A stretch of 16,784 nucleotides of DNA from Candidatus Jordarchaeales archaeon (GCA_038858525.1 JAWCFL010000036.1:1-16784); one strand, 5' to 3'; counted from the first letter of the stretch, positions 12,602-16,784 are shown. Program-made: numbers and translations. The notes: a model not told the origin generated them from the letters alone.

Positions 12602-12998
12602 GGCGGCGTGCCAGGAGTAATCCATCTTCTGTTGGGAGACCGTTGTTACCAACGGCCTCTTGGCGGCATTCGGCTATGCGCCCTACCCGCCGCCTCCCGT
12701 GGGCGTCATCGGCAGCCTATTTGGGCTTGCACCCCCGAGGATGGCCGTTTCAACGGTCCCACCTGCATCCTCAGCGGGTTATCTCGGCGCTTGTCGCCAA
12801 GCGCCTTCTCGGGAGCCCCTCAGCCGCTTCATCGTCATCCCGCAAGTGGACGTGTCGTTTGCAGCCTTTTCACCGGTTTCTGCTCCAGAGCCAAGCCTCT
12901 CGGCTTGCGCCTCGCGGCGCTCGGGTCCCACGATGGTGGATGGAATTTCCTCAGCGCTCTATTGGAGCGCCGTGAGCCGCCCTCTGGCTCGCCGCCTC
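12600..12998 (-). ncRNA. rnpB: RNase P RNA, archaeal type A, about 399 nt
   Basis: GC-rich island. On the minus strand: P1 GAGGCGGCGAGCCAG/CUGGCACGCCGCCUC; P2 GGCGGC/GCCGCC; P3 GCGCUC/GAGCGC; P4 GAGGAAAUUCCAUC with AACAGAAGAUGGAUUA; P8 GCGCC-GCGA-GGCGC; P9 AAGCC-GAGA-GGCUU; CR motifs AGCAGAAAC and UGAAACGG; GCAAGCCCAAAUAGG; P6 CGUGGG/CCCACG; L15 GGUA; P19 GAGGCCGUUG-GUAA-CAACGGUCUC. Confidence 0.97.
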
Positions 12999-14664: not shown

Positions 14665-15360
14665 TTAGATGGATTTTATTTTTCCTTTTCGCGCTAAAAT
14701 GCTTTGAACAAGCATTGATGCGCCCAGGATGGCTGTTGTGCTCGGTAGCACGTTGACGAGGCTTAGAGATAGAATGGCGCCACCTAAGGTTAAGGACAGC
14801 TTAGACCCTTTACTTTCACCCTTGTTTAAAATGTTTCTTCTGGTGTTTAGCACGTATAGTTCTATTTCTTTCATGTTGAGGCGACGGGAAAGCGATTTGA
14901 CTAATTTGTTTTTCTTCCATTTCATTGAGGCTACCGTCATGTGACGCTTAGCTAGGTTATATAGTTGAACCCGTGTAAGTTGGTAAAGCATCTGCTCCTT
15001 TATGCTGAAGGTTTTTGTTATTGGCCTTCCTTCAAGAAGCGCTGAACATGAAAGATAGAGCGTCAGGAGCGCTATCGTGAAGCTTGGAACCGCAACTATT
15101 ATAACGCCCCAAATAACCAGTATTCCAATAGCGATAATTAGGACGGCTACACCATAGAAGAGCAAGTCAACGAACGCGAAGGAGCAAGCTTTTCTAAGGA
15201 CGTAACTTAGCCCTACAAGTGATATTGTCGCCCCAATAGCCATTGTCAGTAAAGATTCATAGGAGACGAAAAAACCAGTAGTTTGCACAAGTAAGCCAAC
15301 TAGCAGAAAAGCCCACATCTGCTTTAGCGGCGTAATTTTTCCATCGATTTTTCCCCACAT
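14665..15360 (-). CDS. Hypothetical multi-pass membrane protein with a basic soluble loop
   Basis: About 4 N-terminal TM segments, a Lys/Arg-rich helical loop (about aa 111-187) and C-terminal hydrophobic segments. GGAGG SD upstream of the ATG. Confidence 0.75.
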   Translation of the reverse strand: MWGKIDGKITPLKQMWAFLLVGLLVQTTGFFVSYESLLTMAIGATISLVGLSYVLRKACSFAFVDLLFYGVAVLIIAIGILVIWGVIIVAVPSFTIALLTLYLSCSALLEGRPITKTFSIKEQMLYQLTRVQLYNLAKRHMTVASMKWKKNKLVKSLSRRLNMKEIELYVLNTRRNILNKGESKGSKLSLTLGGAILSLSLVNVLPSTTAILGASMLVQSILARKGKIKSI

Positions 15361-15836
15361 TCCTCCAACCCCAAATTAAACAATTTTTCCGTTCAAGCAA
15401 CCAATGAGGAAGCATGAGAAACTAAAAAAAGGTTTCCTGCCAGCTTATTCAAAAGAGCTTATACTAAACAACCCCAGCTATTTTAAGATGGAATAAAACG
15501 ACGCATATAAAGGTTTTCATGAGTAAACCACTAAATTCGCCTTAGCCAAAAGAAAGTTGCATATCAATATTTTGAGCCAAGAGCTTGCATGCCATTTTAT
15601 CTCCTTTAATGCAGCTTTTATTTTGCCAGAACTGTTCAGGTGTGTCAAAAAGGGGCCTTAGATTTTTGACGGTTAAAACCAGAATAAGGATTGGTTTTGC
15701 TGTTCCTGAAGGACATTAAAAGAGATAAAAATAAAAGAGTGAAGCAAAAAGCCGGCTATCTTGCAAAGGTTGGTTTTAAGCATTACGAAGTTTAGATACG
15801 TAAAGTTCAAATAAATCAAAGGCCAAAGGAGTAATT

Positions 15837-16140
15837 GGGCTCCCTTATCGAGGACTGGGCCGACTGCCCAAGCGGGGTGGATGAGGCTTGGAGCAAGGAG
15901 GGAGCTACATTATTGGGGGAGACCGCCGCGCAAAACCCTACTTGAACGGACTTTCACCGAGAAAAAGGGAAGGTATAAAACTTCCGGGATGAGGTGGAGT
16001 TTACCCAAGTAGGGGACAGCGGCTTAGAAACGCCAGGTATGGCTCCCGGGTTTGAGAGCATGGTTGAGGGGGGCGAATGCTCCACTATGAAACCATGTGT
16101 TAGTTACCTCGGGAACACTGGCGTTTCTCCCCCTAATGTT
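15837..16140 (+). ncRNA. Three-hairpin box H/ACA pseudouridylation guide RNA (predicted)
   Basis: Three stem-pocket-stem-K-turn units. ACA boxes lie at 15907-15909, 16016-16018 and 16115-16117, which is 14, 15 and 16 nt from the 3' pocket start. The G-U pairs are consistent only with the + strand. Folded by eye. Confidence 0.8.
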
Positions 16141-16165
16141 CCATTTATTATCTTCCGAAAGATGA

Positions 16166-16176
16166 GCTGTTTTTAG
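16166..16176 (+). terminator. Possible oligo-T terminator after the structured RNA
   Basis: GCTGTTTTTAG follows a short AUCUU/AAGAU hairpin. Weak evidence. Confidence 0.3.
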
Positions 16177-16251
16177 TGGGGGGACAGAAATTTTAAAAGC
16201 TTCTAAGATTGTTAGGGTTTAGGAGAAGGAGCGATGTAGGTGAGGGCGACA

Positions 16252-16569
16252 TTGCCTAGGAAGAGAGATAAGGACCATGAGGTAATTGAAGTTAAGGACG
16301 TGCGAGTGCCTATGGAGGGGGAGATTTTAGGAGTAGTTGAAAGGATGGTTGGCAACGATAGGCTTATTGTTAACTGTACTGATGGGAAGACGCGATTGGC
16401 GAGAATAAGAGGCAAATTTAAGAAGAAGGTTTGGATAAGGAATGGCGATGTTGTTCTCGTGGCGCCTTGGGATTTTCAAGATGATCGTGCCGATGTTGTG
16501 TGGAGATACAATGAGGGAGAGGTTAAGTGGCTTAAAAATAGAGGGTACTTGAACGGGTTAAATGTTTAA
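16252..16569 (+). CDS. eif1a: Translation initiation factor aIF-1A
   Basis: VRVP.EGEILGVVERMVGNDRLIVNCTDGKTRLARIRGKFKKKVWIRNGDVVLVAPWDFQ...DVVWRY. Start is probably TTG 16252 after a GGTGA SD; the ORF track gives GTG 16240. Confidence 0.96.
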   Translation: MPRKRDKDHEVIEVKDVRVPMEGEILGVVERMVGNDRLIVNCTDGKTRLARIRGKFKKKVWIRNGDVVLVAPWDFQDDRADVVWRYNEGEVKWLKNRGYLNGLNV

Positions 16570-16784
16570 CTCGTCTTTTTGATGCGGCGAATACCACTGA
16601 GAATTCTTTCAATGACTTCCGGCTTTAAGTATATGACTGCTGCAAGAGTTAATGTTGCTAATAAGGAGAAGGCTGACGCTTGGTTGTTCAGCTGGCTAAG
16701 CTCCCAATGTTTTAACATAACTTGCGTTATAATGGCTGTTAGAAGCGAAAGTGGCCTTATCGCCTCAGGAGGTAAAACATCTAT
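16566..16784 (-). CDS. C-terminal part of a probable membrane protein; runs off the right edge
   Basis: Open frame IDVLPPEAIRPLSLLTAIITQVML...AFSLLATLTLAAVIYLKPEVIERILSGIRRIKKTS-stop. Its TAA overlaps the aIF-1A stop region. Confidence 0.65.
   Translation of the reverse strand: MDVLPPEAIRPLSLLTAIITQVMLKHWELSQLNNQASAFSLLATLTLAAVIYLKPEVIERILSGIRRIKKTS

Follow-up and report, generated by a model that had tools for sequence, protein, structure and literature searches.

A three-hairpin box H/ACA sRNA of an Asgard archaeon with a predicted guide for pseudouridine at position 2496 of 23S rRNA

The DNA analysed here, referred to as the window, is a stretch of 16,784 nucleotides from a Candidatus Jordarchaeales archaeon (GCA_038858525.1, JAWCFL010000036.1:1-16784). 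Close to its 3′ end, between an unassigned 231-amino-acid open reading frame and the gene for aIF-1A, lies a GC-rich region free of open reading frames that is occupied by a box H/ACA sRNA of three hairpins, termed units 1 to 3 (Table 1). The sRNA has a much better fold than shuffled sequence has (z = -6.7), and in the consensus fold 24 pairs are maintained through changes on both sides. Compensatory changes are also present in the long-range helix formed by the linker and the 3′ tail (alignment columns 111-116 with 329-334). Upstream of the sRNA, each of the five family genomes has the sequence GTAAAGTTCAAATA at an equal distance, and archaeal promoter geometry suggests that the TATA-like element within it, TTCAAATAAAT, is a putative promoter. 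Elsewhere in the window, an archaeal RNase P RNA was detected at 12606-12992 on the minus strand (Rfam RF00373, 174.6 bits); compared with the model it contains large insertions.

Table 1. Features of the sRNA locus, in window coordinates
Feature	Position	Strand	Evidence or remarks
231-aa ORF	14665-15360	-	one flank of the sRNA
TATA-like element TTCAAATAAAT	15806-15816	+	within GTAAAGTTCAAATA; centred ~26 nt before the 5′ end of the sRNA
Three-hairpin box H/ACA sRNA, 302 nt	15838-16139	+	Rfam HgcG match, fold, homologues, RNA-library contig
Unit 1 lower stem, 5′ strand	15838-15845	+	pairs with 15899-15906; 7 of 8 pairs covary, 22 Asgard sequences
Unit 1 5′ pocket strand UAUCGAGGA	15846-15854	+	15846-15853 predicted to pair with 23S CCUCGAUG (E. 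coli 2498-2505)
Unit 1 upper stem (H2), 5′ strand	15855-15861	+	pairs with 15885-15891; 6 of 7 pairs covary
Unit 1 predicted K-turn and apical stem-loop	15862-15884	+	G15862-A15863 opposite G15883-A15884 (tandem sheared G·A); apical stem in 15864-15880
Unit 1 upper stem (H2), 3′ strand	15885-15891	+	folds, covariation
Unit 1 3′ pocket strand AGCAAGG	15892-15898	+	15893-15897 predicted to pair with 23S CUUGC (E. coli 2491-2495)
Unit 1 lower stem, 3′ strand	15899-15906	+	folds, covariation
Unit 1 ACA box	15907-15909	+	invariant in the family
Linker strand	15915-15922	+	pairs with 3′ tail 16126-16133; encloses units 2 and 3 in one domain
Outer stem enclosing unit 2	15925-15929 with 16019-16023	+	fold
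Unit 2	15936-16018	+	lower stem 15936-15944/16006-16014; upper stem 15952-15958/15993-15999; ACA 16016-16018
Unit 2 K-turn	GA 15959-60 with GA 15991-92	+	sequence, fold
Unit 3	16044-16117	+	lower stem 16044-16050/16108-16114; upper stem 16059-16065/16091-16097; ACA 16115-16117
Unit 3 K-turn	GA 16066-67 with GA 16089-90	+	unit 3 aligns with HgcG motif 3
Pyrimidine-rich 3′ tail	16118-16139	+	16118-16124 pair with 16030-16036; 16126-16133 with 15915-15922
aIF-1A gene	16240-16569		other flank of the sRNA; Pfam eIF-1a, E 3.6e-25

Only one Rfam family matched the sRNA region below an E value of 0.01. The HgcG/Pab40 model (RF00064) was aligned end to end (1-276) with 15786-16122 at E 3.9e-6, and the locus is the only match to this model in the 2.09-Mb genome (E 3.4e-6). 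At 28.6 bits the match falls well short of the gathering score of 77, which places the sRNA outside the Rfam family as curated. None of the eukaryotic snoRNA families in the Rfam scan matched the region at E values up to 10. The sRNA is a remote homologue of the three-motif sRNA known as Pab40, Pf7 and Afu-4 (Rfam HgcG). Like Pab40, Pho40, Pf7, Tko1 and Afu-4, it is built of three hairpins that all carry a K-turn and an ACA box. Compared column by column with HgcG motif 1 (using the Rfam consensus and published papers for Pab40), unit 1 has the same 7-bp upper stem, the same 9-nt 5′ pocket ending in GAGGA and the same 15-nt spacing to the ACA box, and the K-turns of the two are aligned with one another by the model.

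Several differences accompany this resemblance. Unit 2 measures 131 nt in the comparison, against 79 nt in the HgcG model, and extra long-range helices surround units 2 and 3 of the window sRNA, whose host belongs to the Asgard archaea. Where HgcG has an a-u pair at the pocket-proximal end of its upper stem, the window family always has a purine opposite a purine (A15854 and A15892 in the window). Lastly, the 3′ pocket reads GCAAG in the window and GCGAc in the Rfam consensus, a change that presumably tracks a different 23S sequence in Thermococcales.

In unit 1, the guide strands AUCGAGG (15847-15853) and GCAAG (15893-15897) and the ACA box (15907-15909) were read directly from the window sequence. 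Both the minimum free energy and the centroid fold give the lower stem, pocket and upper stem of this hairpin, with the two strands facing each other across an internal loop that has a lower stem of 8 bp beneath it and an upper stem of 7 bp above it. The ACA box follows immediately 3′ of the lower stem, which ends in a G15838·U15906 wobble, the last Watson-Crick pair being G15839-C15905. Counting from G15893, the first target-paired base of the 3′ guide strand, A15907 is 14 nt away, while the upper stem is separated from the ACA box by 15 nt; in archaeal H/ACA RNAs the ACA box is, as a rule, separated by 14-15 nt from the pocket or target position (PMC2377435). The G·A-capped element above the upper stem is a predicted K-turn, the candidate binding site for L7Ae. 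Its pattern GA...(A/G)UGA is kept in relatives, and smaller Asgard homologues have K-loops instead; the bulge in the window copy is 2 nt, not 3 nt, if C15864 pairs with G15880. As judged from sequence and fold, unit 1 has the layout of an archaeal box H/ACA hairpin with a K-turn.

The target of the unit 1 pocket was read from the 23S rRNA of related genomes. No 23S rRNA turned up in the 63 contigs of the window's own genome, whether by exact motif search, with the Rfam LSU model or through several conserved 23S words, and a whole-genome search with the target word returned five partial matches of 11 nt and no full site. Since the window contig ends 645 nt past the sRNA, an assembly break is the likely reason: in two relatives (G002 and G004) the 23S rRNA gene is located ~4 kb downstream of the sRNA and aIF-1A, on the same strand as the sRNA. 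The genome's own 16S rRNA gene (C12:4061-5556) stands alone, with no 23S in the following 55 kb. This lone 16S, together with the position of the 23S in relatives, indicates that the rRNA genes are unlinked and that the guide gene is a close neighbour of its target gene.

In G002, G003 (same genus) and G004 (same family), the 23S rRNA reads GGCUUGC-U-(A|U)-CCUCGAUGUCGG, that is CUUGC-U-(A/U)-CCUCGAUG, with A at position 2497 in G003 and U in both G002 and G004. With this sequence the pocket forms 13 pairs, five through the 3′ strand and eight through the 5′ strand. One of them is the U15846·G wobble, which lengthens the pairing of the 5′ strand to 8 bp; the 3′ duplex is 5 bp only, and the bases beside the upper stem, A15854 and A15892, remain unpaired with 23S rRNA. 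When every uridine in the 23S rRNA of the three relatives and in the own 16S rRNA was scanned, this was the sole site with at least 9 pairs, the runner-up having 8 pairs of which two were G·U. Shuffled pocket strands reached 13 pairs anywhere in 3 of 2000 trials. In the window genome, aragorn finds only 5 tRNA genes, and there are ~46 runs of ~97 N over 21 contigs; apparently these runs mask most tRNA genes, and the scan covered rRNA.

Gapless alignment with E. coli MG1655 rrlB (positions 2445-2620) places the target uridine opposite C2496. Two offsets connect this position to sites of known modification. Yeast 2826 corresponds to E. coli 2457 (PMC11077068), an offset of 369, so that yeast 2865, where pseudouridine formation is guided by snR46 (PMC5699541), corresponds to E. 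coli 2496. In P. abyssi, positions 2549, 2672 and 2697 have been assigned to the E. coli RluE, RluC and RluB positions 2457, 2580 and 2605 (PMC2377435); because these Pab35-guided sites all lie at +92, P. abyssi 2588 likewise corresponds to E. coli 2496. The predicted site, at the peptidyl-transferase centre, is the equivalent of P. abyssi psi2588, T. kodakarensis psi2592 and yeast psi2865.

Much of this had been anticipated by a first-pass annotation made from the window sequence. It had picked out the strands AUCGAGG and GCAAG, the latter 14 nt before ACA, and both the sequence and the fold bear it out; the target that it deduced, CUUGC-U-N-CCUCGAU, is matched by the 23S rRNA of all three relatives. 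Its assignment of the uridine to E. coli position 2496, and of the yeast equivalent to the snR46-guided U2865, agrees with the alignment and the offset given above. The same annotation had put the site in the peptidyl-transferase loop, and here the position needs refining: the uridine borders the central loop of domain V and does not lie inside it, since position 2496 closes helix 89. Muller et al. (2008) also assign psi2588 to helix 89 (PMC2377435).

Pab40 motif 1 makes P. abyssi psi2588, which was positive by CMCT-RT in cellular rRNA, and the motif showed strong activity in vitro. For motif 1 of Pf7 and of Afu4 an identical target was put forward, and the psi2588 site was described as highly conserved in eukaryotes (Muller et al. 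2008, PMC2377435). Like Pab40 motif 1, unit 1 has the position equivalent to psi2588 as its predicted target. Knocking out cbf5, nop10 or gar1 in T. kodakarensis abolishes psi2592 (PMC6138745).

With yeast snR46 the window guide is predicted to share the modified position, the pocket mechanism and the enzyme family, namely Cbf5/dyskerin with Nop10, Gar1 and an L7Ae-type protein. Unlike the window sRNA, however, eukaryotic guides adopt a two-hairpin H-box/ACA form without K-turns. The flanks of the target in yeast 25S rRNA differ from the Asgard flanks. As far as the sequences can tell, what snR46 and the window guide have in common would be the site only, sequence homology between the two guides not being detectable.

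Homologues of the whole sRNA were found in each of the four other genomes of the family (G001-G004), with 73-84% identity. These include Candidatus Jordarchaeia archaeon QC4 (G001) and Candidatus Jordarchaeum sp. LHC_1308 (G003), both of the same genus as the window and the latter the closest homologue at 84%, as well as a MAG of the same family labelled Thermoproteota archaeon S9B3_HD70 (G004). An exact-pattern scan of public genomes found unit 3 in three archaeal records, identical to G001, G003 and G004, which marks the window as DNA of a Jordarchaeum-type Asgard archaeon, and the public runs that contain the window stretch are hot-spring metagenomes.

Beyond the family, a first covariance model of unit 1 detected one hairpin in each of 22 genomes among 151 sampled Asgard genomes. 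Twenty of the 22 hairpins have the same pocket; the other two (L090 and L103) have different pockets and were dropped. A second model, built from the 20 same-pocket hairpins, matched 47 of the 151 genomes, representing 11 of 27 families, again with one match per genome. Among ten newly fetched matches of this second model the pocket was the same in nine, with (A/U)UCGAGGA and (A/U)GCAA(A/G) as its strands, the exception being G021. Across these homologues the pocket strands (A/U)UCGAGG(A/G) and (A/G/U)GCAA(G/A/U) are fixed while both stems turn over, UCGAGG being nearly invariant. Within the 22 sequences, 13 of the 15 stem pairs of unit 1 change on both sides, and none of 500 shuffles matched the observed values, the alignment having been fitted to the covariance model and so favouring structure somewhat. 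When the partner columns were slid against one another, pairing dropped from 86% to 34-59%.

All four proteins expected to act with such a guide (Cbf5, Nop10, Gar1 and L7Ae) are encoded in the genome. The cbf5 gene (contig C1, ~177174-177220; L076:1539-1585) carries an insertion of ~30 nt with an in-frame TGA in the codon for the catalytic aspartate, and removal of the insertion restores the motif GHAGTL-D-PKVTG. The insertion has conserved ends (CUAGA...GUGAAA), a variable length of 28-34 nt and a covarying hairpin. It was also found in G002, G003, G004 and four genomes of a sister family, with no match reported for G001. Crenarchaeal cbf5 contains a bulge-helix-bulge (BHB) pre-mRNA intron in the same codon (PMC2738675). 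From these features the insertion is a predicted short intron, whose splicing would be required to restore the catalytic Asp codon.

We conclude that unit 1 very probably guides the formation of pseudouridine at U2496 of 23S rRNA. In the predicted complex, L7Ae would bind the K-turn of unit 1, and Cbf5-Nop10-Gar1 would be positioned on the lower stem and the ACA box. GCAAG (15893-15897) would pair with CUUGC (E. coli 2491-2495) and UAUCGAGG (15846-15853) with CCUCGAUG (E. coli 2498-2505), such that U2496 and the next base would stay unpaired directly below the upper stem, and there Cbf5 would turn the uridine into pseudouridine. We infer that the ribonucleoprotein assembles and that U2496 is indeed modified in the window organism.

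Three other explanations were weighed against this prediction. According to the first, unit 1 is a real guide that acts, in place of U2496 or alongside it, on the neighbouring uridine at 2497 or on a second substrate. G002 and G004 have two consecutive uridines at 2496-2497, and moving the register by one base would bring A15892 into pairing with the first of them. The move would cost one G-C pair and leave G15853 and A15854 unpaired, and in the closest sRNA homologue (G003) the A at 2497 offers no uridine to the shifted register; the validated Pyrococcus site, moreover, is the equivalent of E. coli 2496. As for a second substrate, single archaeal motifs are known to act at several sites (up to three) and to work with a short minimal duplex (Muller et al. 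2008, PMC2377435), and with five readable tRNA genes such a substrate could lie among the tRNAs; within rRNA, no other site reaches 9 pairs. We consider this explanation unlikely.

It is very unlikely that the hairpin binds rRNA without catalysis, as a chaperone for the folding of helix 89 or the peptidyl-transferase centre, or that it is a decayed, inactive guide. What could be read in this way are the non-canonical 2-nt bulge of the K-turn in the window copy, the one unpaired base on each side of the pocket and the interruption of cbf5 at its catalytic codon, which makes splicing necessary. Yet the pocket, the ACA box, the spacing and the GA pairs of the K-turn are kept across many Asgard families, as expected for an active guide, and Pab40 motif 1, with the same geometry, is highly active. 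The cbf5 insertion, for its part, resembles the spliced crenarchaeal intron in having conserved ends and a covarying hairpin. Finally, it is hardly credible that a GC-rich structured RNA with another function matches 23S rRNA by chance, for although the 3′ duplex is short and 3 of 2000 shuffles equalled the pairing, the pocket is constant and the stems covary in 47 genomes, the site is identical to that of an experimentally proven homologous guide, and all H/ACA hallmarks are present.

Guidance of U2496 by unit 1 thus remains the preferred reading, and targets were also sought for the other two units. For unit 2 no convincing rRNA match was found, the best having 11 pairs, five of them G·U, at the equivalent of E. 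coli 2580. The unit 3 pocket has its best match in the helix 69 region of 23S rRNA (CUGAC-U-C-UCUUAAG, 5+7 pairs), where more than one register fits relative to the loop uridines 1915 and 1917. In the best register the uridine aligns with E. coli G1921 (yeast 2264 by offset). The target of HgcG motif 3 is a helix 69 uridine (P. abyssi 2016), and unit 3 may address the same helix, its register being ambiguous.

Contigs of the sRNA are present in two metatranscriptome libraries of one study, the RNA being from a near-identical strain. A 332-nt contig from library X13, with a word depth of ~379, covers 15838-15980 and 15951-16139 in permuted order and joins 16139 to 15838 without shared letters; the DNA contigs of X11 continue past both ends. 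The same contig carries the variant T15888C, which converts the G15858·U15888 wobble of the upper stem to a G-C pair. No contig in the RNA libraries X13 and X14 covers 15700-15837 or 16140-16784, an absence that proves nothing in contig data. The X13 contig hints that the sRNA is expressed, with its 5′ end at the first base of unit 1 and its 3′ end 22 nt past the last ACA. The Pab40 transcript similarly extends from the first base of motif 1 to beyond the last ACA (PMC4652768).

The head-to-tail joint, found in one contig of one run, could reflect a circular sRNA of 302 nt or an artefact of reverse transcription in the form of an end-to-end template switch. There is a precedent in Sulfolobus solfataricus, where the H/ACA RNA sR109 was found to be circular (Danan et al. 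2012, PMC3326292). The joint, if real, would make both of them head-to-tail joined archaeal H/ACA RNAs; sR109 is a single atypical motif of 70 nt, unlike the window sRNA with its 302 nt and three hairpins. Excision by the splicing endonuclease through a bulge-helix-bulge at the sRNA ends was considered and rejected, as the leader-trailer pairing of the window is not conserved in four relatives. A real circle would make the window sRNA the first H/ACA guide of several hairpins in circular form.

The pairing of this type of guide with this site, and the conservation of the site in eukaryotes, were published for Euryarchaeota between 2002 and 2008 and are not new. The first-pass annotation was right to propose an archaeal guide for a eukaryote-type site at the peptidyl-transferase centre, but the novelty that it implied falls away, guides of this kind having been known since Afu-4, Pf7 and Pab40. 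What the analysis adds is the presence of the same pocket across Asgard archaea, in at least 11 of the 27 sampled families. Our literature searches found no paper on Asgard H/ACA guides and no pseudouridine map for any Asgard archaeon. Asgard archaea also have a predicted guide for one of the few rRNA pseudouridine sites common to Pyrococcus and eukaryotes. Some target sites of eukaryotic snoRNAs have long been considered to predate eukaryotes; the Asgard guide agrees with that view and extends it to the lineage closest to them, leaving the overall picture unchanged. In practical terms, the analysis yields an unannotated non-coding RNA gene, a covariance model for the annotation of Asgard genomes and a concrete site for future maps of Asgard rRNA modification.

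A further-reaching proposal combines two elements: that the U2496 guide is ancient and was inherited vertically in Euryarchaeota and many Asgard archaea, and that the mature sRNA is a 302-nt circle joined between 16139 and 15838. We put this combination forward tentatively, as a possibility that we would not expect to hold in full. Were the ancient-guide reading true, the eukaryotic psi2865 site (of the snR46 type) would descend directly from an Asgard H/ACA guide-target pair.

One Asgard genome departs from the common pattern at both the guide and the target. In G021, a complete genome from another family, the unit 1 homologue has the altered 5′ pocket AAAGAGG. Its 23S rRNA (L009, G021:C1:456113-459127) contains a 32-nt hairpin insertion at ~1460-1500, directly after GCUUGCUA; the insertion falls between positions 2497 and 2498 in E. 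coli numbering, at the target site of the guide.
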